Shown here: positions 1,667 through 32,702 of the stretch, one piece after another
Layout: every line of letters starts with the position of its first letter
How positions within the stretch are numbered: the first letter of the stretch is position 1
Position numbers and translations under genes: made by a program
UHGV virus genome: UHGV-1394528
Reading direction: 5' to 3' (one strand)
Source: a virus
Length of the DNA: 32,702 bases
Notes under the pieces: generated by a model
What the model was told of the DNA's origin: nothing
What the model saw: only the letters and a program-made list of their open reading frames with translations
Database searches by the model: none

Positions 1667-2686
1667 TTAGGGCTTGGTGGTGAAGGTGAACTTGGTCACT
1701 GCAGCGGTGTCCGGACGGCGCAGGCCGATGTTGTACATCGCGTAGCAGTCCAGCACGTTGCTGAACTCGCGCTCATCATCCCAGATACGGGAGGTGAACG
1801 GCTTAGCTTCAACAGTCACCAGGGTCTTGGACTTGCTGAAAGTCACCATACGGCACAGCGCGTCGTCAGAGGTGACGGTGTAAGCAGAGCCCAACGGGTG
1901 CGTACCGGCAGCGGTCGGGAACTCGGTGCACTCTACCACAGGCACGCCGTTCATCTTCACTACACGGCGGTCTTTGTAACCGTCGTTGTTGGATGCACCG
2001 AAGTCCAGGTTCAGGAGCTTCGGATGCTCCAGCAGACGCGAATAGGTATCGACATCCACCAGGGTAATCATGTCCGCCAGCGGGGTCTTGCGCTTGATGA
2101 GTTCATCGATACCAGCCTTGTGGGCCAGGTTGATGTTCATAGCGTTCGCCTCCATCTCAGCCTGGGTCAGCTGCGTGGCGGTGGTGGTACCCGGAACCAG
2201 GACGGCTGCGCCCACCTCGATACCGTCATTGAATGCTGGTTTCAGGTGCGCCGGAGCAACCCAGGAGCGGCCCTTGATGAGCTGAATCAGGTGCGCCTGG
2301 TCGAAGGTCTCCGCGAACTCAGAGCCGTTGTTCTGACCCATCTCGGTCAGGAAGTCCGGACCGGTCCAGTCATCCTGGTAGTCAATCGGGTTACGGATAT
2401 ACAGCACCGTATCCACCACGATAATCATCTTATCGTTACGGACCGGGGTGCTATCCAGCGCCTCACCGGAGCGACGACCTTTCACCGAGGAGGTGTTCAG
2501 GCGGTCAATACGGTAGGTGTTGGAACCACTGATAGAGCGCTGGCTGGAGAGGCCCAGGAACAGAGCCTGGTACTGGAAGCGGGTGTCGACTTCATTCTGG
2601 TACACTTCCAGGTGAATATCGACGTCAGACGCCGCGCCTGCCCAGTGGGCTCTTGTCAAGTTAGCTTTATAGATGGTATCGGCCAT
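1667..2686 (-). CDS. major capsid protein (T7 gp10-like)
   Basis: 339 aa, size and position (after scaffold, before terminator) typical of T7-like major capsid; SD AAGGAAAG upstream. Confidence 0.8.
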   Translation of the reverse strand: MADTIYKANLTRAHWAGAASDVDIHLEVYQNEVDTRFQYQALFLGLSSQRSISGSNTYRIDRLNTSSVKGRRSGEALDSTPVRNDKMIIVVDTVLYIRNPIDYQDDWTGPDFLTEMGQNNGSEFAETFDQAHLIQLIKGRSWVAPAHLKPAFNDGIEVGAAVLVPGTTTATQLTQAEMEANAMNINLAHKAGIDELIKRKTPLADMITLVDVDTYSRLLEHPKLLNLDFGASNNDGYKDRRVVKMNGVPVVECTEFPTAAGTHPLGSAYTVTSDDALCRMVTFSKSKTLVTVEAKPFTSRIWDDEREFSNVLDCYAMYNIGLRRPDTAAVTKFTFTTKP

Positions 2687-2698
2687 ATTCTACTTTCC

Positions 2699-3175
2699 TT
2701 ATTTAAGTACATTAACAGATGCATAAGCATGCATCTTTGCTTTAGCTTTCAGGTAGGCATCTCGCGCTGCGTGTTCGCAGTCAAAGTGCCCGAGGTGTGT
2801 TGTCTTACCATTTAGCTGTATGTAGGCCCGCCACTTGTTAGCTCGGGAATCCCAACAATAGCCTTTCCACACAGAGTTCTGAGCGTTACCTGATTTGTCA
2901 ACTAGGCGCAGGTTCTCAATTCTATTGTCTGCTTTATCCAGATTAATGTGGTCCACCATCAACCCTTGGGGTATATCCCCGTGATGCATGAACCAAACAA
3001 GCCGGTGTGCATACTCTCTCACCCGTCCCGCTGCCCCGCGGTCCCAGGTCACGCGGCGGTATCCCCAGTTATTCTGGTAGGTATCACCGAAACGACCTGT
3101 GGCCTTGTTAATCAAGCGCCCGTCTTCTGTGTAGGTGTAGCGATTAGCTAGTTCTTGCAAGAGATTAATCTCCAT
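2699..3175 (-). CDS. HNH homing endonuclease with AP2-like DNA-binding domain
   Basis: Motif AHRLVW...VDHINLDKADNRIENLRLV (HNH_3 type) followed by an AP2-like WRAYIQLNGKTTHLGHF segment; inserted between scaffold and capsid genes. Confidence 0.8.
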   Translation of the reverse strand: MEINLLQELANRYTYTEDGRLINKATGRFGDTYQNNWGYRRVTWDRGAAGRVREYAHRLVWFMHHGDIPQGLMVDHINLDKADNRIENLRLVDKSGNAQNSVWKGYCWDSRANKWRAYIQLNGKTTHLGHFDCEHAARDAYLKAKAKMHAYASVNVLK

Positions 3176-3187
3176 GATTGGTAAGTA

Positions 3188-4030
3188 TTAGAGACCTACG
3201 CGCTTACCGGCTTCACGGCGTGCGAGCAAATCGTTATAACGTTGACTGAACTGTGGGGATGCCAAGCTACGGTTGCCCGCTTCCTGACGGAGTTTGGTAT
3301 ACTCTGCACGGAAGTCCGCAGCAGATAGTGCATTGTTGCTAGCTACGCCTCGTACCATTGGGTTCTGTGTCTTGATAAGACCCATATCCCGGCAGAAGCC
3401 CGCCACCAACTCGGCGGCCTGCTTAAGCTCGCCTGCGTTAGCGAGTACACGAGCTGCGTTACGCAGAGGTTCCGGAGCCTTGGAATTAAACAGCTGCGCT
3501 GCTACCTCCCAGTTCTCCTTCCCGCCTACAATATCGTAAGCTTCCTGTACTGCTTTGGTGGCTTGGCCAACCTGGTCTTCCAGGTACGCCTTGGCCAGCA
3601 GCTCTGCATAAGCAGCGTGCTCGCCGAAACGTTCCTTAATGAAGGCCGTATCGATTAGGTTAGGGTCCTGGTACTCCAGGGCCTTACCAAGTGCCCGCAC
3701 CATATCAGAGTCAGTTAACCCAGAGACTTTCTGCAACATAGCTACACCGGCGTCAATCGTCGGGTTGCCAGTCTTAGCCAGCTCCTGGGGCTGCTCTTTA
3801 GCGCTATCGCCACCCTTATCCAGGGCCGCTTTTAGGGCTTCGATATCCAGAGGAATCTTAGCAGGGTCAGGGGAATCTTTGCCCTGTTGCTGCTGGGTAG
3901 GTGTCTGTGCATCCTGCACGCCTTGATTGTTCGGGGCGCTAAGGGGAGCACCTAGGCCCGGAATCTTAGGACCACCTTGGTTCTCTACCTGTGTAGTTTC
4001 TACGTTTTGACCGTTTTCTACGTTATCCAT
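3188..4030 (-). CDS. scaffolding protein (T7 gp9-like)
   Basis: 280 aa, acidic and Q/A-rich, low complexity, located between portal and capsid genes. Confidence 0.65.
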   Translation of the reverse strand: MDNVENGQNVETTQVENQGGPKIPGLGAPLSAPNNQGVQDAQTPTQQQQGKDSPDPAKIPLDIEALKAALDKGGDSAKEQPQELAKTGNPTIDAGVAMLQKVSGLTDSDMVRALGKALEYQDPNLIDTAFIKERFGEHAAYAELLAKAYLEDQVGQATKAVQEAYDIVGGKENWEVAAQLFNSKAPEPLRNAARVLANAGELKQAAELVAGFCRDMGLIKTQNPMVRGVASNNALSAADFRAEYTKLRQEAGNRSLASPQFSQRYNDLLARREAGKRVGL

Positions 4031-6353: not shown

Positions 6354-6378
6354 TCCTACTCCTGTAACATTAAATTTT

Positions 6379-12479: not shown

Positions 12480-13268
12480 TTAGGCTTGATGTGCGGCGGG
12501 TGCTGCTGGCGCCACAGGGGCTGCAGGGGCCACTGGTGCAGCCGGGGCTGCGGGTGCCTGCATAGCCGCCGGACTAGGAACCGAGCCAGCGTTCAGCAGA
12601 ATATCCAGAGCACTGCCAGGGAAGTCTACAGCCTTGTACATATCCTCCTGAATCCAGTTCTTGCTCTTACCATCGTCGAAGGTGCCTTCGATGTGCAGGC
12701 TATCCCAGGTCTCTTTGGTTGGGTTGTTCCACAGGAACAGCTTAATCTCAGAGGCATCCAGGGCAGGCATCTTGATAGGCTCGCCAGTGTTCGGGTCGAA
12801 TTTCGGAATCGGGCGGATACCGGACAGGTCCGCGATGTTGGACTTCTTGCCCGCGGCGCTGGTGTGCTCATCAATCGGGAAGGTGAAGGCCTGGCCCAGA
12901 CGCTGTGCTGCATGCTTAATGCTATTGTCGTAGTTGAGCTTGTCGAAGAACTTCTTGAAGCCTGCGCGCTCAAAGTTACTGATAGCCATCGGGAACGGGC
13001 GGATACGCTTCACTTCGCCGTTAGGACCGAACACTACAATGCCGATGCGTACGTTAGCTACTGCGGGCTTACCGGTCGGCTTGCCACCCTTAGTCGGCAG
13101 GCGCTTACCGATTTCTACGTACTCGGTGAAGTAGCCGTAGTATTCACCCTTCGGCAGCAGCACGTCCTCATACGCACCGCCCTGTGCGGTTTCAGTCATA
13201 TCAACATCCTGCGTTTCAATAGCAGCCGCTACCAGGGAGTTCAGGGTGTCCAGTGCATTCATCGTCAT
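12480..13268 (-). CDS. hypothetical protein with Pro/Ala-rich C-terminal tail (possible DNA-binding/replication accessory protein by position only)
   Basis: 262 aa; C-terminus PSPAAMQAPAAPAAPVAPAAPVAPAAPAAHQA; no recognisable catalytic motif. Confidence 0.6.
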   Translation of the reverse strand: MTMNALDTLNSLVAAAIETQDVDMTETAQGGAYEDVLLPKGEYYGYFTEYVEIGKRLPTKGGKPTGKPAVANVRIGIVVFGPNGEVKRIRPFPMAISNFERAGFKKFFDKLNYDNSIKHAAQRLGQAFTFPIDEHTSAAGKKSNIADLSGIRPIPKFDPNTGEPIKMPALDASEIKLFLWNNPTKETWDSLHIEGTFDDGKSKNWIQEDMYKAVDFPGSALDILLNAGSVPSPAAMQAPAAPAAPVAPAAPVAPAAPAAHQA

Positions 13269-14908: not shown

Positions 14909-15069
14909 TCGGTACCCTCTTGTGTTGTTCCTACTCGTATCACATTAATTCTCTGTGAATCACAGAATCAAGCTAGAGTCAACAAATAATTTTATTTAAT
15001 TATTTAGTTGACCCCAGTGTATTTCCATGCTACCCTAACCCCCTACACCACCCAAGGGTCCACCTATCA

Positions 15070-17863: not shown

Positions 17864-18093
17864 TTAGCCCTCCGAGCCTTGTTGATAGCCAGATGCACAA
17901 TCAGCTGGCTGCTGTCCAGTGCGAATCGTTTACGGAAAGTACCTGCAGATGCAGCGTACGCCTTGATTACCTCGTCGTCTTGGTAGTTGATGTCTGACGG
18001 TTTAAGCATACTAGTAAATCTCCCAGCAGTGATATAGGCCCTACAATATCCCACTCTCTCTGATTGTAGCGTGCCCCGAGTTCCACGGTACAA
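17854..18093 (-). CDS. hypothetical protein (start uncertain)
   Basis: Track ORF; overlaps 17967..18188 in another frame, so at most one start choice is right. Confidence 0.3.
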   Translation of the reverse strand: MYRGTRGTLQSERVGYCRAYITAGRFTSMLKPSDINYQDDEVIKAYAASAGTFRKRFALDSSQLIVHLAINKARRAKWK

Positions 18094-18188
18094 AATTCCC
18101 CGGTAACGCGGTGTCGCACCACGTAACTACCGCGTATAAGTCCTGTGTAATCCACTTTTTGGATAACCCCTGTATAGTCTACTTGCAT
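17967..18188 (-). CDS. hypothetical protein, about 73 aa
   Basis: Track ORF 17967..18242 trimmed to Met19 (ATG 18186-18188) with strong SD AGGAGGG; palindromic motif C lies just upstream. Confidence 0.4.
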   Translation of the reverse strand: MQVDYTGVIQKVDYTGLIRGSYVVRHRVTGEFCTVELGARYNQREWDIVGPISLLGDLLVCLNRQTSTTKTTR

Positions 18189-18238
18189 AAACCCTCCTGT
18201 GTACCTACATAGCGCCCTCGTAGAAGGCGCTAGGGAAG

Positions 18239-19519
18239 TCACTGGTTAATCTGGCCTTCGTCAAATCTACAACGTCCAGGCTCGAATCCCACCTCGAATT
18301 GCAGGAGCGACTCTTTACCAGACAGCGCCATCTTGTTCTTAGGAGTACTGATACCTCGGACGTTTTGCATATGCGGCTGCTCGTTTCTGTCCAAGCACCC
18401 CATCATAATCGCCAAGTCCAAGGCACCCTGTACACCAATCTTGCTCTGCTTCATAGCAGTGAGCGGCGGGAACAGCATGTTGTAACCTTCGAGTGAAAGC
18501 TGCATAGTCCCTACGATAGCGCAGTCGTTCTCGCACCCAAGGATGCGCAGCTCCTGCCATTTCGCCTCGAGATTCTGGTGCTCACTCTCCATAGTGCCGC
18601 CACGGATATTCGCCACCATGTCGATGATGATTACCGCGGGGCGCATCTCCTCCATGAGTGTGGATATCTGCGCCATCGTCAAGGAGTGCGCAGCCTTTAC
18701 ACGAATCCGGTCAGCCCTGCCTACTTTCTTGAGGTAGGCTGGCACGAACTCTTGCTTACTGTGCCTGTCCTTAATCTCCGCCAGAGTCCAATGCAGCGCC
18801 GCTTGATATACCCTCGGCACTGTACGCGTCGCCGGACCCTCGTTAACCAGCCAGAGAATCGGGCGGTCCCCGTATACTTCCGGCTGCTGCTGCATCTGCT
18901 CAGCAAAGTCCACAGCAATAGCAGCAAGCAGGCTAGTTTTACCAGAGTCCACAGGAGCAGCCACTGCGATGCAGTCCCCGCCGCGTAGACCTCGGATGCT
19001 GCTAGCGAGTTGCTCGAACACGCCCAGTTTAAGACCACCGCTCTCGTCAGTCGCGGCAAGTATTTCGTCAACACTTCCGCTCTCCCATTCAAGCAGCGAC
19101 TCGTGCACTGCAGCACCGTCTCCGTACTTGCGCTGCAGGTGCTTCATTTCCAGTAGGTAATCAATCTCCTCGCCGTCTTGGTAGCGCTGCGTCAGCGCCG
19201 CCACCTCTCCGCTGTAGGCCAGCTCATTCAGGGTCTGGACAATCCCCACCACAGAATCCTGCGGTACGGCTTGTACTCCCCGCATAAGCTCGTCCATGAT
19301 TACCCGCTCTTCCCGGGATAGGTGTCCCGCCCGGAGATTGAGCATGCTCTGCATTGCATCCCACTGAACCTCCTGGTGCTCCGGGTACGTGTTCCAGTAC
19401 AACCCCACCCAGTCTAGTAGGTTCGACGTATCCGGCGCGAGCATGCTCTTAGGTATCTGCTCTCGCAAGCGAGTCCACACTTTCTGCGTGCACATAGCAC
19501 GAACAACTATTAGGTCCAA
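18239..19519 (-). CDS. DnaB-like replicative DNA helicase (T7 gp4 helicase-domain-like)
   Basis: 426 aa; Walker A GDCIAVAAPVDSGKTSLLA, Walker B-like AVIIIDMV; no primase domain. Confidence 0.8.
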   Translation of the reverse strand: MDLIVVRAMCTQKVWTRLREQIPKSMLAPDTSNLLDWVGLYWNTYPEHQEVQWDAMQSMLNLRAGHLSREERVIMDELMRGVQAVPQDSVVGIVQTLNELAYSGEVAALTQRYQDGEEIDYLLEMKHLQRKYGDGAAVHESLLEWESGSVDEILAATDESGGLKLGVFEQLASSIRGLRGGDCIAVAAPVDSGKTSLLAAIAVDFAEQMQQQPEVYGDRPILWLVNEGPATRTVPRVYQAALHWTLAEIKDRHSKQEFVPAYLKKVGRADRIRVKAAHSLTMAQISTLMEEMRPAVIIIDMVANIRGGTMESEHQNLEAKWQELRILGCENDCAIVGTMQLSLEGYNMLFPPLTAMKQSKIGVQGALDLAIMMGCLDRNEQPHMQNVRGISTPKNKMALSGKESLLQFEVGFEPGRCRFDEGQINQ

Positions 19520-25178: not shown

Positions 25179-25227
25179 ACGCCAGTTGCATTCACATAGC
25201 GCCCCGCAGGACGCTATAGGCTTGCTA

Positions 25228-25299
25228 CTAGAGATATTCGCCCACCACTACAAATAACAGCACCACCGCCGTTATGATAACCATGAATTCTACGCTCAT
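25228..25299 (-). CDS. hydrophobic micro-ORF, 23 aa (not in ORF track)
   Basis: Read by eye: MSVEFMVIITAVVLLFVVVGEYL; ATG overlaps stop of the 191-aa gene (ATGA). Confidence 0.25.
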   Translation of the reverse strand: MSVEFMVIITAVVLLFVVVGEYL

Positions 25300-25871: not shown

Positions 25872-25942
25872 AATGCACCTCTTTGATTGGTTGTTTAGGT
25901 AATTACTTCACATAGCACCCCGTAGGATGCTATAGGCTGTAA

Positions 25943-26140
25943 TTATCGACCAAATTGGGAGTTAACAGTAGGCCATCCAGATGGCTGCCTGCTACTGCCC
26001 TTTTGTTTTTGCTTTCCCCTCACCCTGTGCTCACTGCTCAACCCTTGTTTGCTAGGCTTCACAGTAAGCGGCACGTCGTCGGTGGGATTCAGTGATAATT
26101 GCATATTCCGCCGTAATGCTAAACGCTTTGATTTGCGCAT
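25943..26140 (-). CDS. possible small basic protein, 65 aa
   Basis: Track ORF with good SD (GAGAGG, 8-nt spacer) but low-complexity R/K/S-rich sequence; may be non-coding leader. Confidence 0.25.
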   Translation of the reverse strand: MRKSKRLALRRNMQLSLNPTDDVPLTVKPSKQGLSSEHRVRGKQKQKGSSRQPSGWPTVNSQFGR

Positions 26141-26490
26141 ACTCTTACCTCTCAGAGAACATAATCTAGCGCAACCTTGTTACTGCTGCGCTATGTTATA
26201 TGCTCTTTGCGGGATACACTCCGCGCCTTGTTCCCTCGATTCAGAGGAGCGAGCTGCTCTCGCCTCGACAGTGTGGTTTGTCTCAGAACCCCGGTGATAA
26301 CGTCCGGCACGTTTACTCTTTAACTGATTGTCTAGGGGTGGGTCGTCAACGTACCAGTCAAGGTACTGGGCCTCCCCGCAAACCAGCTTACTACTAAACC
26401 TTTAAGAGGTCATTTTTAACGTCTAGCCTAATCCGACGGGACACACATCCTTGCGCCCTAGAGTGGTTATCCTTGCCTTGTTCGCTATCT

Positions 26491-26559: not shown

Positions 26560-26588
26560 AATCTAGCTTATGTTCTTCGCGGTGTCAA
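26560..26588 (-). promoter_or_regulatory. candidate sigma70 early promoter (upstream of tandem pair)
   Basis: Minus strand: -35 TTGACA (26588-26583), 17-bp spacer, -10 TAGATT (26565-26560). Confidence 0.4.
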
Positions 26589-27157: not shown

Positions 27158-27399
27158 AACAATATCTCCTTACATAGTGATTAGTAGCGTAACCATAGCG
27201 ACGATATCCCGGAGGGATAGGAGCGGAGGTTACAAGATTCTAGGTAATGCTTCCCTCCCTACGGTCAGTCATACAGGGCATTACTAGGGGATACTAGTGA
27301 CTACTAGTGAGTAGTAGTAAGTAGTGTGTATATAGTGCCCTAAAACCCTCCTACTCCTGTAACATCATTTCATGACAGCTTTCGAATGAAAGTAAGAGC

Positions 27400-28536: not shown

Positions 28537-30492
28537 TTAGAGATACACCTCCCATGCTACCTGGGATACGTCCGCTGCGTTACTGCTCCTAATCACGAAG
28601 CTGTTTAGGTCCGGATTAGGTGTAGGCACATCCTGGTTCTGAGCTACGCCAGTAACCGTCAAGGCCCCAGCACTAGAAGGAAAGGTCAACCGCGTCAACT
28701 TAACCTCAGACACCCACTTGAAGGAGTTAGCTACGCTGCCAAAGTTTCCGCGTACACGGGCGTTGACTGTAGCCTCACCAGCCACCAGCGTTGCCACTCC
28801 ACGGATACCTGTGTCATCCAGTAAGTTCCTGGACATGCGCGGAGGCGTAGGTTGAACGGTGTAGCCGCTCAGCAATGCCCAGAACAAGCCGTGACCGGTC
28901 ATGTCGTTATTGGACATAGATACCAGGGTAGGGTCAATGCCCATAGTCCCGTGGAAGTACACAGCTCTCCCGGTACCGTCGTAGCGCATGCTCACGCCAT
29001 CAATCTCCAGGGATGTCTGCGCTGTCTCAGCTACGTCCTTAGTGACGAAGATGTGAGAGCTGGAGTTGCGGGTGTACCGACCACCCTTAACACGGCCCCC
29101 GTTGATTCGCACACCATTCTGGCTACCGTGAGCCTCGCAGTCATAAACGTAGCCACCGCCGTACGAGCAGTTAAAGCCAGAGCGTACGTTGTCATAAGCT
29201 AGGCACTCCCTATAGATAGGGAAGGCTACACCGGTGTTGGAGGCGAACCCGTCCATAGCTGCACGGTAAGCTCGACAGTTCAAGTACTCCACCCCGTTAG
29301 TGCGCGCTTGGAACCCATCGTCAGCACTGTCGTACGAAACGCAGCGAACGAACTTCACACGCTTACCAATGTCATGAGTATCAAACCCAGCTTGGGTTGT
29401 GCTGTAGGCTTCGCAGTTAACGCCTAAGAACTCGATAGGCTCCCCCCATTTGTCCCCGTCTGCAGTGCTCTGCCAGTTCAGAGAGATTGCGTGGCGTACG
29501 TCCATGGCGTGGATATCGTGTACTTCCGTGTCCTCTGAGCAGCCGAGCACCTCTACCCCGTACCATCCGATGTTGTAGAAGCACGTACCCTTAACGGTAC
29601 TATCTACGCAGTTATTGAACTTGATAGCACTACGCCCTTCTATATCAGAAGCCCCGGGGCGTTTGTTGCCAATAATAACCCCGTCCTGGATGTGCAAGTC
29701 CGCGGCAAAGTTGGCAGAGATACCGATAGTAAAGAACCGGTTCAAATCGTCGTAGCCGAACTCGTTGATGTACGGGGATACTAAGGTTACGTTCTCCACC
29801 ATTGTCGGGATACCTACTTCCGCGGCATCAGACAGGTAGTAGTTATAGTGCAGCGCTTTATCCAGCCGAATACTGGTGACGCCACCGGAGGTGCTAACCC
29901 CCACCACTTTCCTAATCTGGGAAATCTTTACACCGTAGGTGTTAGGACCACCATCACACAGCTTGTTAGAGCGAAGATACAAGTACGTACCTTTTACCGC
30001 AGACAAAGCCCCGGCAGCCACCGTAATGACTTTGCTGCCCGCTGTGGCATCCGCCGCTAACGGGACGAATGCCGAGGGTGCCGAGCCGATAATGTTAAGC
30101 ACTTGACGTGCAACCGAGGCATCCGGCAGGATTCTTCCGGTATCAGTAAACTCCAGCGTAGAGTTGCTTTTGATGTTGAGCACACTCGTGGCCTGCAGGA
30201 CTGTGTCCACAACCAGGTGCCTATTAGGTGCGCTCATGAACGTTACTATGCCCGCCCAATTGCTGAACCAGGAGCTGTATGCCGGACCCACGAATTTACG
30301 GAGTAGATACCCACCAGGTACAGCAAACACAGTTCCGTTATCCACTACCGACGCGGCAGTAGTAAAGGTGAAGTCCCCACCGGCGCTGCCCAGCAGGATA
30401 ATCTTGTCCTGTACCTGAAAGTTTGGATATGCTACCATGCTCGCCAAGTCGGAGAATACCCGCTCTGGAGCTACTAATCTAATTAACGCCAT
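28537..30492 (-). CDS. tailspike protein, probable polysaccharide depolymerase with beta-helix
   Basis: 651 aa; Gly/Asn/Ser/Thr-rich with periodic hydrophobic residues and scattered Cys/aromatics typical of parallel beta-helix depolymerases; ATG follows endolysin stop directly. Confidence 0.7.
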   Translation of the reverse strand: MALIRLVAPERVFSDLASMVAYPNFQVQDKIILLGSAGGDFTFTTAASVVDNGTVFAVPGGYLLRKFVGPAYSSWFSNWAGIVTFMSAPNRHLVVDTVLQATSVLNIKSNSTLEFTDTGRILPDASVARQVLNIIGSAPSAFVPLAADATAGSKVITVAAGALSAVKGTYLYLRSNKLCDGGPNTYGVKISQIRKVVGVSTSGGVTSIRLDKALHYNYYLSDAAEVGIPTMVENVTLVSPYINEFGYDDLNRFFTIGISANFAADLHIQDGVIIGNKRPGASDIEGRSAIKFNNCVDSTVKGTCFYNIGWYGVEVLGCSEDTEVHDIHAMDVRHAISLNWQSTADGDKWGEPIEFLGVNCEAYSTTQAGFDTHDIGKRVKFVRCVSYDSADDGFQARTNGVEYLNCRAYRAAMDGFASNTGVAFPIYRECLAYDNVRSGFNCSYGGGYVYDCEAHGSQNGVRINGGRVKGGRYTRNSSSHIFVTKDVAETAQTSLEIDGVSMRYDGTGRAVYFHGTMGIDPTLVSMSNNDMTGHGLFWALLSGYTVQPTPPRMSRNLLDDTGIRGVATLVAGEATVNARVRGNFGSVANSFKWVSEVKLTRLTFPSSAGALTVTGVAQNQDVPTPNPDLNSFVIRSSNAADVSQVAWEVYL

Positions 30493-31101
30493 TTATCCTC
30501 CGGTCTTAGTAAGAGCTGCCACTGCAGCATTTACATTCTTATACTGATTCCCAATGGCCTTGCTCTGCCACTGTCTGCGCTCCCATAGGCCCCAGCACAC
30601 TTTATTGCGCTGCCCGTTAATATACTGAGAGCAGTCGAAGGTCCAGCGGTTGCTGCCCTTGTACACCCAACCGATGCCCGGGGATTTCTGCTGATACTTG
30701 CTAATATAGCGCCAGTCCAGTACGGCCTTTCCAGCTTCTGCGTAATTCAGGCTTTTGAGGTGCCGCTTCACAGCACTGCCGTTGAAGCCAGCTACGCCTA
30801 CGTTATAAATGAAGTCTACAGACCCAACCAGAGCTACGTCAGAGAGCTGCATAGGAAGCCCGTCAAGAGCCTTTGCATGTGCCCCTGCTGATTCTATCAG
30901 TTGCTTCTGACAATCGCTCAGCGTGGCTCTCTGGCCCATCTTGACGCCCTTTGTCTCCCCGTAGCAGATTGTAGGGACACCGGCACTATCCTTATAGGCG
31001 GTAAGGCTCAATCCCTCGTTGTGCTGAACCACCCCGGTAATAGCACCACCCAGCATAGTGGCCCCCGTGAGGGCCGCAATAACCTTAGTCCTTAAACTCA
31101 T
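30493..31101 (-). CDS. SAR endolysin (lysozyme-like muramidase with N-terminal signal-arrest-release domain)
   Basis: N-terminal Gly/Ala-rich weakly hydrophobic segment KVIAALTGATMLGGAITGVV, then E...D...T pattern HNEGLSLTAYKDSAGVPTICYGETKG as in phage P21 lysozyme. Confidence 0.8.
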   Translation of the reverse strand: MSLRTKVIAALTGATMLGGAITGVVQHNEGLSLTAYKDSAGVPTICYGETKGVKMGQRATLSDCQKQLIESAGAHAKALDGLPMQLSDVALVGSVDFIYNVGVAGFNGSAVKRHLKSLNYAEAGKAVLDWRYISKYQQKSPGIGWVYKGSNRWTFDCSQYINGQRNKVCWGLWERRQWQSKAIGNQYKNVNAAVAALTKTGG

Positions 31102-31336
31102 ATTTAATAGTCCCCTTACGCGCCTGCTCTTCTAGGAGCTTGAATGTACGTCGCTTGTAATACGCATTCCACGCCAGGGTTAGCACTGCGCACACAGTCG
31201 CAGTGATGAAGCTGATAGTGCTCCAGTTCCAGCTCATTAACTCTGCCAACCAACCTCCTGATACCGTAGCGCCGGTAACTGCTGCACCTGCCCGGGTAGC
31301 GAGGTCTGCTCCAACCATGTCTCCCACCTTAATCAT
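31085..31336 (-). CDS. holin (pinholin-like)
   Basis: 83 aa; weakly hydrophobic Gly/Ala-rich TMD1 (AGAAVTGATVSGGWLAELM), hydrophobic TMD2 (TISFITATVCAVLTLAW), charged C-terminus; two in-frame Mets (M1, M7). Confidence 0.6.
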   Translation of the reverse strand: MIKVGDMVGADLATRAGAAVTGATVSGGWLAELMSWNWSTISFITATVCAVLTLAWNAYYKRRTFKLLEEQARKGTIKYEFKD

Positions 31337-31733
31337 CCTGCTGCCCCTTCTTCCTGAACAGCTTACGAATCACCAGAATGACCACTAGGAAGACCAGAGG
31401 AATACTGGCCCCAGCTAATCCGGCGAGGATAAGACTGTAACTATCATTGTTAACCACCTGCAGGCGTTCTGCCTGGATTGTCCCGGTGCTAATAGTTTGC
31501 ACCTGCTTCTTACTGGACGTGTCCAAAGTGCCTACGTTAGAATCCTGTACATCAGTTTTGTTGGTGGTGCTGGAGTCCACCTTGTTATTCAAGCCAACGG
31601 TTTGTTTGGTGTTCTCGGCACCAACCTGAGCAGATACATCCGGCTTAGAACCAACTAATCCGGTGAGTGCAGAGGTCGCCGAGCAACCAGTCAGAGTAAC
31701 CGCGAGCAGCAACCCAGCGACCAGTTTACGCAT
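31329..31733 (-). CDS. lipoprotein with C-terminal transmembrane anchor (unimolecular-spanin-like)
   Basis: Signal peptide plus lipobox MRKLVAGLLLAVTLTGC; polar S/T/Q/N-rich middle; C-terminal TMD LILAGLAGASIPLVFLVVILVI followed by RKLFRKKGQQDD. Confidence 0.55.
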   Translation of the reverse strand: MRKLVAGLLLAVTLTGCSATSALTGLVGSKPDVSAQVGAENTKQTVGLNNKVDSSTTNKTDVQDSNVGTLDTSSKKQVQTISTGTIQAERLQVVNNDSYSLILAGLAGASIPLVFLVVILVIRKLFRKKGQQDD

Positions 31734-31915
31734 TAGCTAGCAGCCTTCACTGCGGCCACCGCGGCTTCAAGCGCAGCAATCTTGGTATCGAAGGCAGCAC
31801 CAGTCTGGGCCACGTTCTGCGGCTGCGTAAGGATAGCATACAGGTCCTTACCGAGAATGTTCAGCTGACGCAACAGCTCCTGCTGTTGCGCTGAGGTTGC
31901 TTTTGCAATTGCCAT
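31733..31915 (-). CDS. hypothetical protein, 60 aa
   Basis: Track ORF, Ala/Gln-rich, overlaps downstream start by 1 nt. Confidence 0.4.
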   Translation of the reverse strand: MAIAKATSAQQQELLRQLNILGKDLYAILTQPQNVAQTGAAFDTKIAALEAAVAAVKAAS

Positions 31916-31926
31916 GTGTACTCTCC

Positions 31927-32301
31927 TTATTCTGCCGCATCAGTGGCGGCTACGAATGCACTCTGCAGTGCAGTGAACGAATCATCAAACGCTGTACCGG
32001 AGCCCTCACCGAGCGGCATACCTGTACCTGTAAGGGCAACGTAGCCGGTCTTAGAGAGCTGTGACAGCATGCTGAACAGGCGCGCCTGCAGCGTACCGTC
32101 ATCCTTAAAGGCTGTACCGGCACGGGTAGCCGTATAGCCCTGGGACTGCATGTACGTGAAGAACGCGTTCAGCTTAGTCAGGGCAGTCGTACCTACGAAG
32201 CCTACGTTGTAGTCCGGCTGCACCTGCTTCTCCAGGTTCTGGCACGTGCCTACAATGGCGTACTGGACGTCCGCAGTTTTAGCTGCGATGATTGATGCCA
32301 T
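31927..32301 (-). CDS. hypothetical protein, 124 aa
   Basis: Track ORF immediately after terminase large subunit stop. Confidence 0.5.
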   Translation of the reverse strand: MASIIAAKTADVQYAIVGTCQNLEKQVQPDYNVGFVGTTALTKLNAFFTYMQSQGYTATRAGTAFKDDGTLQARLFSMLSQLSKTGYVALTGTGMPLGEGSGTAFDDSFTALQSAFVAATDAAE

Positions 32302-32702
32302 TATCTTCTTCCTCTATGTTGTTTACCTCTGCCCCGGTTATGTAGCCGAGCAGCTACACCACGAAGGCCCTTAGACACTTTGCTCTGTGCCCAATCCAGT
32401 GGGTTCTCAATGAAGGCCCGAGCCATCTTCTCAGACTCACGTTCAGCCACCACTTTCTCATCTTCCACCAGATGCCCATTCAGCGTAGCCACCATCATGG
32501 CGATTGCGTCTGCCCGGTCATCCTTCGCAAGGCTACCGCGGTCGTACGTGATACCGGACAACTGCGCGAACGCAGAGTACAGCCAACGCCTATCGCGGGA
32601 ATATGCCATACAGGTACTGATATCGTCGTGAATAGCACGCTCATGCACTACCAGGCGATGGCGACGAGTAACTGGGCTGATTGTGTCGATGATACGACGC
32701 TC
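32301..32702 (-). CDS. terminase large subunit (T7 gp19-like), 3' part; continues beyond window end
   Basis: Frame open to window end; RIIDTISPVTRRHRLVV and YDRGSLAKDDRADAIAMMVA match T7 gp19 C-terminal nuclease-domain blocks (RIIDTLEPVMGRHKLII; ERGSLKHDDRLDALA). Confidence 0.85.
   Translation of the reverse strand, partial: ERRIIDTISPVTRRHRLVVHERAIHDDISTCMAYSRDRRWLYSAFAQLSGITYDRGSLAKDDRADAIAMMVATLNGHLVEDEKVVAERESEKMARAFIENPLDWAQSKVSKGLRGVAARLHNRGRGKQHRGRR

Follow-up and report, generated by a model that had tools for sequence, protein, structure and literature searches.

A recurring gene-boundary hairpin in a KP34-like Klebsiella phage as a candidate RNase III processing site

The palindrome that follows the helicase gene of virus genome UHGV-1394528 is a diverged copy of an intergenic element that, on the RNA level, resembles the processing sites of phage T7. 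On balance, we favor by some way short of certainty the interpretation that this copy (hereafter, copy C), like two canonical copies of the element among the early genes (A and B), is a site at which the host RNase III processes and stabilizes a polycistronic early/middle mRNA. The analyzed stretch of 32,702 nucleotides (the window) belongs to Drulisvirus, i.e., it comes from a KP34-like Klebsiella phage.

The palindrome, its position and its distribution

The plus strand at positions 18207-18235 reads ACATAGCGCC-CTCGTAGAA-GGCGCTAGGG and contains a perfect 7-bp inverted repeat, TAGCGCC/GGCGCTA, with a 9-nt spacer; in the transcribed minus strand, which carries all genes around copy C, positions 18232..18210 read UAGCGCC-N9-GGCGCUA. 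Both the palindrome and its placement, just past the helicase stop and about 20 nt ahead of a Shine-Dalgarno sequence and ATG, had been correctly recognized in an earlier, sequence-only reading of this DNA. Indeed, the stop codon TGA occupies positions 18241-18239, the inverted repeat ends at 18210, and the next gene starts with an AGGAGG Shine-Dalgarno sequence at 18198-18193, which adjoins the hairpin, and an ATG at 18188-18186, 21 nt past the repeat. The palindrome is, however, only a part of the element, which extends over 18242..18199 and includes an outer helix that covers the helicase stop. The features of this region are as follows:

18239..19519, minus strand: upstream gene, encoding a DnaB-like replicative helicase (open reading frame; annotated as DNA helicase in relatives)
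18199..18242, minus strand: complete predicted hairpin of copy C, GUGACUU-C-C-C-UAGCGCCUUC-UAC-GAGGGCGCUA-U-G-U-AGGU(A)CAC (RNAfold)
18236..18242, minus strand: GUGACUU, which includes the helicase stop UGA (18241-18239) and is predicted to form the 5′ arm of the lower (outer) helix
18223..18232, minus strand: UAGCGCCUUC, predicted as the 5′ arm of the 10-bp upper (inner) helix and beginning with the 7 nt of the reported inverted repeat
18220..18222, minus strand: predicted apical loop UAC; the loop and the surrounding bases are the only hypervariable columns
18210..18219, minus strand: predicted 3′ arm of the inner helix, GAGGGCGCUA
18199..18209, minus strand: 3′ side of the predicted internal loop, U-G-U, followed by the 3′ arm of the outer helix, AGGU(A)CAC
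17967..18198, minus strand: downstream gene (phrog_22804, 73 aa, function unknown), with its ATG at 18188

The core CATAGCGCC, which the sequence-only reading considered to be common to three copies, is identical in copy C and in the copy at 25191, and matches the copy at 25908, where it reads CATAGCACC, in 8 of 9 bases. The degenerate pattern TAGCRYC-N2-12-GRYGCTA occurs 3 times in the window (0.01 expected; none of 100 shuffles reaches 3). The sequence-only reading was right to see in copy C a third, diverged member of an element that recurs at gene boundaries. The complete genome of KP34 likewise contains 3 matches and no more, where 0.03 would be expected; each is in the sense strand and in an intergenic gap. 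Nor is the element confined to the replication block: two of the copies lie among the early genes, and the canonical motif represented by copies A and B is found in at least seven other phage genera.

Copies A and B correspond exactly to a motif that was previously described in the Kp34likevirus group as a "putative phage promoter", with the consensus AGCCTATAGCGTCCTACGGGGCGCTATGTGAA and only two reported locations (Eriksson et al. 2015; PMC4411677). Both copies match this consensus in full, whereas copy C is missed by a search with the consensus allowing 3 mismatches and is undetected at E ≤ 10 by the covariance model R1 of the canonical motif (default filters). As R1 misses copy C, what ties it to A and B is the degenerate pattern together with GCGCUAUGU, which they share, and the common architecture. 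On its 3′ side, copy C agrees with the published motif in GCGCUAUGU, and on its 5′ side in CCUA..GCG; the hairpin plan is also the same, but its 5′ arm is 2 nt (UA) shorter, its apical stem is longer (UUC/GAG), and it is located past the helicase gene and only in Drulisvirus.

Copy C is present once per record in 244 phage records; among 33 distinct variants, column entropy shows invariant arms and a hypervariable loop (columns 28-31). In the canonical motif, a core of 26-32 nt is identical across genera, two U.G wobble pairs and a C.U mismatch are invariant, and the internal loop AG-C-C/U-G-AA is conserved. No match to the motif was found in 5,426 E. coli genomes, and a host-derived element was rejected accordingly. 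Rfam contains no match to any part of the window at the gathering thresholds, and, for the three copy regions at E ≤ 10, yields only chance-level matches to microRNAs and snoRNAs (E 0.3-5.6).

As a side effect, the repeated copies also act as recombination points at which early-gene cassettes are deleted or duplicated, the traces being a hybrid A/B copy, a half copy and a tandem copy. PeSL stem-loops (Arbiol et al. 2010) reportedly bracket optional early-gene cassettes in T4-type phages and are said to include an early promoter. The likeness is that repeated stem-loops flank small, variably present early genes, with recombination between copies removing or adding cassettes; unlike PeSLs, the KP34-type copies have no associated promoter. 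Some viable phages carry A/B hybrids with an unmatched outer helix or lack both A and B; therefore, the canonical copies are dispensable, a point that weighs against the favored interpretation.

Two-helix hairpins in the sense transcript

RNA folding places each copy at the top of a hairpin with two helices, and the hairpins follow a common plan from the outside in: 7-9 bp of outer helix come first, then a C.U mismatch within a small internal loop, an inner helix of 10 bp, and a variable apical loop. In copy C, a 7-bp outer helix is followed by C.U, C-G and C.U and then by the 10-bp inner helix; in A and B, the outer helix of 7-9 bp and the 10-bp inner helix are separated by a 4x4 loop with a central C-G pair. 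A candidate fourth hairpin with the same two-helix plan is located upstream of the early genes:

25182..25231, minus strand: canonical copy B (72.4 bits with covariance model R1), with CUAGUAGCA/UGCAACUGG as outer and UAUAGCGUCC/GGGCGCUAUG as inner helix, AG-C-C/U-G-AA as internal loop and UGCG as apical loop
25900..25945, minus strand: canonical copy A (74 bits with R1), with UAAUUAC/GUAAUUA as outer helix, overlapping the TAA at which the first gene (65 aa) ends, UAUAGCAUCC/GGGUGCUAUG as inner helix and UACG as apical loop
26155..26206, minus strand: candidate for a fourth hairpin, within the 5′ UTR that precedes the first early gene; inner core UAGCGCA/UGCGCUA

The predicted minimum-free-energy structure of copy C has −26.2 kcal/mol (z = −2.05) and is preserved among relatives, with 97.7% pairing over 19 distinct sequences. 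Taken by itself, copy C shows almost no covariation: 12 of its 18 pairs never vary, and a single pair changes on both sides. Across 56 distinct canonical copies, 90.6% of the cells are paired, compared with 75.3% in shuffles, and changes on both sides are seen in 11 of 20 pairs (slid controls give 25-43%). The paralogous copies each have their own complementary outer helix, so that the sequence of this helix differs among copies and its complementarity is kept. Compensatory swaps include, in outgroup phages, the outer helix of LIMEzero (UAAUGCG/CGCAUUG), an apical C-G to A-U change in BF25/12, and a U-A to C-G change in copy C of K25PH129C1 and KMI3, and, in addition, a G-C to A-U change between copies A and B of the same genome.

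All copies are oriented with the sense strand, and the asymmetry of wobble pairs points to folding of that strand: the inner helix has its G.U pairs on that strand, with 132 G.U against 26 A.C cells in the canonical copies and, in copy C, 42 against 3. Folds of the sense strand are more stable than the antisense ones by 2.5-10.7 kcal/mol (for copy C, −23.9 vs −18.1 kcal/mol). The C.U mismatch directly under the 10-bp upper stem is found in all copies and all outgroups. In LIMEzero, CB5 and PP2, the internal loop has shrunk to a size of 1x1 or 0.

Resemblance to T7 sites and a proposed route of mRNA processing

The T7 RNase III sites follow the same plan, and the model substrate among them, R1.1, is described (PMC6121014) as a 10-bp upper stem with a tetraloop on a 9-bp lower stem, the two being separated by an internal loop of 4/5 nt. 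RNase III substrates span about two helical turns, ~20-22 bp (PMC1540722, PMC3867540), and copies A, B and C all form a quasi-continuous helix of this length, interrupted by an internal loop or mismatch that separates the upper and lower stems, the feature associated with cleavage of one strand. The C.U mismatch lies directly under the upper stem in T7 R0.3, R0.5, R1.1 and R18.5, as it does in all copies, and in R0.5 and R18.5 the UGA of the upstream gene is within the 5′ arm of the lower stem, as in copy C. Furthermore, like the T7 sites (R0.3, R0.5, R1, R1.1, R1.3, R4.7, R6.5, R18.5), the KP34-type copies occur as several related copies per genome, in the sense strand, in intergenic positions inside a polycistronic early/middle transcript.

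The recognition boxes of RNase III prescribe GC at pb1, AU/UA at pb2, AU at pb3, AU/UA at pb4 (U.C in wild-type R1.1), UA at db1 and UG at db2 (PMC1540722). With the register assigned by analogy, copy C matches R1.1 at 6 of 7 positions, namely, pb4 (C.U), pb2 (A-U), pb1 (G-C), db2 (U.G), db1 (U-A) and the closing C-G; the sole mismatch is pb3, which is flipped to U-A. Copies A and B fit the R1.1 boxes at pb2, pb4 and db2 and depart from them at pb1, pb3 and db1. The AGGUAC located 3′ of the predicted cut of copy C is the same as at the corresponding place in T7 R1. The two types of sites differ in the conserved sequence (CCUAUAGCGUCC...GGGCGCUAUGUGAA in the KP34 type vs ACUCAAGGUC...GGCCUUUAUGAUU in T7) and in the internal loop (symmetric 4x4 with a central C-G pair vs 4/5), and, furthermore, cleavage is proven for the T7 sites and predicted for the KP34-type copies.

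Covariance models connect the two types through related phages, in which T7-type sites fill the same intergenic slots. A T7-only model, which recovers the held-out T7 R6.5, detects hairpins in early intergenic gaps of Lidtsur, LIMEzero and J8-65; the site of J8-65 is identical to T7 R1 in 25 of 26 nt. A broadened model matches KP34 2262-2320 (E 3e-4) and CB5 2388-2444, the slot of copy B in Drulisvirus, and the LIMEzero hairpin at 3557-3613 is matched by T7-type and KP34-type models alike. With default filters, the T7-site model R2 finds nothing in the window or in KP34; the sub-threshold matches to the copies come only from filter-off scans and the broadened model R3. In filter-off scans of the whole window with R2 and R3, the first two places go to copies B and A and the fifth to copy C, with scores of 9.7-13.1 bits (E 0.8-7) that are individually not significant and part of which may be accounted for by a generic stable hairpin.

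We propose the following scenario for the early and middle genes, which would be transcribed into a long polycistronic RNA from a host promoter and a phage promoter at the left end:

26560..26588, minus strand: TTGACA-N17-TAGATT, a sigma-70 promoter for the host polymerase that precedes the early operon (scan; host promoter in PMC4411677)
27352..27367, minus strand: verified strong promoter of the KP34 RNA polymerase, TGATGTTACAGGAGTA (PMC6834552)

Transcription from the latter promoter would run from the left end through all copies, which, in the sense transcript, would fold into hairpins comparable in kind to T7 R0.3 to R18.5 and roughly two helical turns long. RNase III, the double-strand-specific endonuclease of the host, would bind the quasi-continuous helix made up of the 10-bp upper stem, the C.U mismatch with a small internal loop, and the 7-9-bp lower stem, and would cleave it once, in the 3′ strand of the internal loop. 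For copy C, cleavage is expected at ...GCUAUGU^AGGUACAC, between 18207 and 18206; this register is a prediction by analogy with T7 R1.1, placing the cut 2 nt 3′ of the pb4 nucleotide. The T7 cleavage coordinates behind it are those attributed to Dunn and Studier 1983. After the cut, the upper hairpin would stay on the helicase mRNA as a stable, protective 3′ cap, and the downstream message would be freed with its Shine-Dalgarno sequence unstructured. Whereas the structure and strand of the element, its conservation and position and its match to T7 sites are shown here, the cut, its exact place and the consequences for mRNA stability and translation are inferred. In the literature on KP34-, phiKMV- and LIMEzero-like phages we found no transcript maps or RNase III sites, and in that on Drulisvirus no cleavage or transcript-end data.

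Alternative explanations and implications

The sequence-only reading allowed for either regulated transcription or RNA processing, and the evidence favors the latter, the former being unsupported. The original published interpretation of A and B as promoters for the single-subunit phage RNA polymerase was prompted by the conservation of an intergenic motif ahead of genes (PMC4411677), but a PCR fragment with the A/B motifs yielded no transcript with the KP34 RNA polymerase in vitro, and the actual KP34 promoters, mapped by 5′-RACE, are unrelated to the motif in sequence (PMC6834552). With 2 mismatches allowed, a search for the verified promoter T(A/G)ATGTTACAGGAGTA or the weak promoter gives matches in the window only at 6357-6372 and 27352-27367, and copies A, B and C contain none; we therefore consider this interpretation most improbable. 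Scans likewise rule out a sigma-70 promoter, no such site being found at any copy. A terminator or attenuator for the host or phage RNA polymerase is suggested by a GC-rich hairpin immediately past a stop codon, and the equivalent of copy C is labeled 'terminator' in the GenBank record of phage Kp_Pokalde_001. However, none of the copies is followed by a U-tract (flanks: UAUGUAGGUAC and UAUGUGAA) and the terminator scan omits them all, which rejects an intrinsic terminator; in the genuine terminator of KP34, 9-10 T occur in a row (PMC4411677). Moreover, essential genes lie downstream (DNA polymerase, RNA polymerase), with no known promoter between copy C and the RNA polymerase gene, so that termination there has, in our judgment, little probability.

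An RNA hairpin that acts independently of RNase III, either as a barrier to 3′ exonucleases and mRNA stabilizer or as a binding site for a phage or host protein (a translational operator or an antitermination-type element), would draw on the same structural and strand evidence, and the 26-32-nt identity across genera, the invariant U.G pairs and the conserved AG-C-C/U-G-AA could reflect a sequence-specific partner. Yet, the T7 RNase III sites are equally conserved across genera, as illustrated by J8-65 and R1; the shrinkage of the internal loop in LIMEzero, CB5 and PP2 speaks against such a partner; and no single cognate gene fits because the flanking genes differ among phages (phrog_5277, phrog_1448, primase, phrog_5136, helicase). 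We regard this explanation as unlikely, if still worth serious attention. An operator for the neighboring phrog_5277 protein in particular is rejected, given that the motif also lies beside phrog_1448, phrog_5136, primase and helicase genes and is found in phages that lack the phrog_5277 protein. At the DNA level, the palindromic character of the element, the proposal of nick sites by Eriksson et al. as an alternative, and recombination at the hybrid A/B, half and extra tandem copies could suggest a palindrome bound by a protein, a cruciform, a signal for replication or nicking, or simply a hotspot of recombination where cassettes meet. But outer helices that differ and remain complementary, together with the G-C to A-U swap between A and B, make no sense for a protein that reads the sequence; the excess of G.U over A.C indicates folding of one strand; the motif is absent from E. 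coli genomes; and recombination accounts for the spread of the copies, not for their conservation. Such a role appears quite improbable to us.

A more speculative possibility, to which we assign a low but not negligible likelihood, is that the KP34-type hairpin is the site of a new sequence-specific RNA-binding factor or ribonuclease of Enterobacterales podophages, acting instead of or in addition to RNase III. Such a factor would account for the 26-32-nt identity in at least seven genera, the two invariant U.G pairs and the invariant C.U; if it exists, the hairpins would form a novel class of cis-regulatory phage RNAs by which the fate of early messages is set.

Phages of Drulisvirus are in wide use as therapy candidates against Klebsiella, and in their genome records the element is called a promoter in some cases and a terminator in others, and elsewhere carries no label. 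Processing by RNase III would explain a conserved motif whose sole published function was experimentally refuted, and it predicts exact mRNA ends. It further suggests that T7-style mRNA processing operates in phiKMV/KP34-like phages of enterobacteria, and would mark natural insulators and cassette borders relevant to genome engineering.

Copy C and the motif family

The window covers some three quarters of the genome of a Drulisvirus, a KP34-like podophage of Klebsiella (Autographiviridae, Slopekvirinae), and shares 85-95% identity with more than 200 records of Klebsiella phages. All its genes are encoded on the minus strand. Relative to KP34, it is circularly permuted, with the genome left end near 27.8 kb; judging by position relative to KP34, the ORFs at 28537-32648, past that end, should correspond to the right-end genes for tail proteins and lysis. 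The relevant features are as follows.

27367..27352, minus strand: strong KP34 RNA polymerase promoter, experimentally defined (PMC6834552), unchanged in the window
26588..26560, minus strand: host sigma-70 promoter of the early operon (PMC4411677 and promoter scan)
26155-26206, minus strand: candidate fourth two-helix hairpin, in the 5' UTR directly ahead of the Shine-Dalgarno sequence of the first early gene
25945..25900, minus strand: copy A of the motif
25228-25299, minus strand: 23-codon ORF for a hydrophobic peptide (MSVEFMVIITAVVLLFVVVGEYL)
25231..25182, minus strand: copy B of the motif
18242..18199, minus strand: copy C of the motif
14909-15069 (KP34 12861-13020), minus strand: intergenic gap of 161 nt following the DNA polymerase block, with a long perfect AT-rich hairpin (GGGGUCAACUAAAUAAUUAAAUAAAAUUAUUUGUUGACUCU)
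6372..6357, minus strand: second strong KP34 RNA polymerase promoter, experimentally defined (PMC6834552), unchanged in the window

Copy C reads ACATAGCGCC-N9-GGCGCTAGGG on the plus strand (18207-18235) and CCCUAGCGCC-UUCUACGAG-GGCGCUAUGU on the transcribed strand. This stretch starts 4 nt past the helicase stop UGA (18241-18239) and ends 21 nt ahead of the next ATG (18188), in front of which stands AGGAGG. The sequence-only reading took this element for the third copy of a motif recurring at gene boundaries, and it is indeed one: a degenerate pattern that copy C has in common with the copies near 25191 and 25908 occurs 3 times in the window versus 0.01 expected. The enrichment at intergenic sites is likewise borne out in the complete KP34 genome, where exactly 3 matches are found versus 0.03 expected, all three on the sense strand and in intergenic gaps.

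Copies A and B are the motif (consensus AGCCTATAGCGTCCTACGGGGCGCTATGTGAA) that Eriksson et al. 2015 named a "putative phage promoter" and placed at two sites in each genome (PMC4411677). In the literature searched, we found no mention of a third copy or of any other function for the motif; one GenBank record labels the copy C equivalent a terminator. Copy C adds to the known motif family a third position, conserved and not described in the literature searched. The canonical 32-mer of A and B is present in 298 phage records, with hosts including, besides Klebsiella, Pectobacterium, Escherichia, Cronobacter, Pantoea, Dickeya and others, and genera including Bonnellvirus, Waewaevirus, Phimunavirus, Stompvirus and Wanjuvirus. 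Every occurrence is in sense orientation and falls in a gap between genes of the early/middle region. The motif was not found in E. coli genomes and had no match in Rfam.

A two-helix hairpin in the sense strand

Folded with their flanks, all three copies adopt one plan: an outer helix of 7-9 bp, whose 5' arm in each case overlaps the upstream ORF's stop codon; a small internal loop that holds a C.U mismatch and a central C-G pair (5' AG-C-C / 3' U-G-AA in A and B); an inner helix of 10 bp, UAUAGCRUCC/GGGYGCUAUG; and an apical loop of four bases, in the window UGCG or UACG. Copy C (GUGACUU / C.U, C-G, C.U / UAGCGCCUUC-UAC-GAGGGCGCUA / AGGU(A)CAC) has two bases fewer in the 5' arm and three extra apical pairs compared with the canonical copies.

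From 60 related IMG/VR loci, we extracted 57 distinct canonical and 33 distinct C-type variants. In the canonical alignment (56 variants, one with a 5-nt loop insertion being omitted), 90.6% of cells are paired, whereas shuffles reach 75.3% and slid controls 25-43%, and 11 of 20 pairs show both-sided changes. Most of this covariation comes from paralogues and is, despite this origin, telling: the outer helices of A (TAATTAC/GTAATTA), B (TAGTAGCA/TGCAACTA) and an extra tandem copy in loci L010 and L013 (GGTTAAT/ATTAACC) are complementary though unrelated in sequence, and in the inner helix a G-C pair is swapped for A-U between A and B. The outgroup phages contribute independent swaps: each has its own outer helix, LIMEzero shows two flipped pairs, and in BF25/12 an apical C-G becomes A-U. 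Copy C alone is nearly invariant, with 97.7% paired cells, 12 of 18 pairs never varying and a single both-sided change (U-A to C-G, in K25PH129C1 and KMI3). Its own support comes, instead of from covariation, from invariant arms enclosing a hypervariable loop and from its single occurrence in each of 244 records. In the two Drulisvirus phages K25PH129C1 and KMI3 (~125-235), the annotation places ahead of copy C a gene for a short protein of unknown function, not a helicase; this gene closes with the same ...CCAGUAA context; their copy C has a restored 12-bp inner helix (UACAGCGCC.../...GGCGCUGUG).

G.U cells outnumber A.C cells by 132 to 26 in the canonical copies and by 42 to 3 in the C type, each type has two invariant U.G pairs, and folding gains in sense over antisense are 5.8 (C), 10.7 (B) and 2.5 kcal/mol (A). 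These figures point to the mRNA, or formally the same DNA strand, as the folding molecule.

The candidate fourth hairpin has the inner core UAGCGCA-N13-UGCGCUA, and its plus-strand reading, CUAGCGCA...UGCGCUAUGU, resembles an inverted copy C; at the same position, locus L009 has a different sequence with the same plan. The ATG of the 23-codon ORF overlaps the phrog_5277 stop (ATGA), and its TAG falls inside copy B's outer helix; ORF3 of LIMEzero, in an analogous position, shows no similarity to the peptide. The 161-nt gap (fold z-score -4.1; one weak sigma-70-like match) may serve as a replication origin or as a middle promoter region.

Likeness to T7 RNase III sites

Ten T7 RNase III sites were folded at coordinates that we take to be those of Dunn and Studier 1983. 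Most fold in the same way, with 10 bp of upper stem closed by a small loop, an internal loop of 4/5 nt and 9 bp of lower stem, as described for the model substrate R1.1 (PMC6121014), and several, like the copies here, carry a C.U mismatch right below the upper stem and the upstream gene's UGA within the 5' arm of the lower stem. The fourth hairpin is positioned analogously to T7 R0.3. When the proximal (pb) and distal (db) boxes are defined as in Pertzev and Nicholson 2006 and the register is assigned by analogy, copy C agrees with R1.1 at pb4 (C.U), pb2 (A-U), pb1 (G-C), db2 (U.G), db1 (U-A) and the closing C-G, pb3 being the only box position flipped; A and B equal R1.1 at pb2, pb4 and db2. 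The transferred R1.1 register predicts a cut between 18207 and 18206, ...GCUAUGU^AGGUACAC; T7 R1 reads ...CCUGAAU^AGGUACGA at its cut.

In J8-65 (2533-4004), early intergenic gaps contain hairpins nearly identical to T7 R1 (site GACAGGCCAUCUGCGGGUGGCCUGAA, 25 of 26 nt), and a KP34-type motif occupies one further gap of the same operon. A covariance model of seven T7 sites recovered the held-out R6.5 at 45 bits and found hairpins in early gaps of Lidtsur, LIMEzero and J8-65. A broadened model, including no KP34-type copy, found KP34 2262-2320 (E 3e-4) and CB5 2388-2444, directly 3' of the phrog_5277 gene, the slot of copy B in Drulisvirus. LIMEzero 3557-3613 is matched by T7-type and KP34-type models alike, and the Peggy hairpin at 2351 combines a T7-like outer helix with copy C's inner core, UAGCGCC/GGCGCUA. 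The T7-type RNase III-like hairpins between early genes of KP34, J8-65 and CB5 (phiKMV/KP34-like enterobacterial phages) seem to be absent from the annotation of these records. When the whole window is scanned with the T7-type model and filters off, B comes first, A second and C fifth, yet with scores of just 13.1, 11.1 and 9.7 bits (E 0.8-7), homology to the T7 sites is suggestive rather than demonstrated.

Possible function and evolution

The sequence-only reading proposed regulated transcription or RNA processing. The transcriptional part finds no support: a fragment with copies A and B gave no RNA with KP34 RNA polymerase, and the real KP34 promoters, mapped in the same study, are unrelated in sequence to the motif (Lu et al. 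2019; PMC6834552). In vitro, this refutes the phage-promoter reading of A and B; the promoter sequence also has no match at the copies. The missing U-tract speaks against an intrinsic terminator. An operator of the adjacent phrog_5277 protein fits poorly with the varied gene neighbours, and a protein site in duplex DNA leaves unexplained both the complementary flanks peculiar to each copy and the G.U asymmetry.

Where the phrog_5277 gene is absent (e.g., L009, L040, L059), loci lack A and B and keep C. In three others that lost this gene, a single hybrid joins A's left flank to B's right flank (L024 4285-4339, L035 1242-1296, L058 1253-1307); L009 4915-5140 retains just the 5' half of copy A, and the tandem copy of L010 (1537/1625) and L013 (3671/3763), with its own complementary outer helix, lies ~90 nt past A. 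These lost, hybrid, half and tandem copies mark the repeats as recombination points, and the loci without A and B show that the canonical copies are dispensable. T7 itself can grow on hosts deficient in RNase III, so that processing sites a phage can do without would not be unusual.

The RNA part of the proposal fares better: the element quite probably has some role in sense-RNA processing or stability. By analogy with T7, the best-supported mechanism, towards which we lean with some reserve, is processing of the polycistronic early/middle mRNA by host RNase III. Such processing would provide the helicase mRNA with a protective hairpin at its 3' end.
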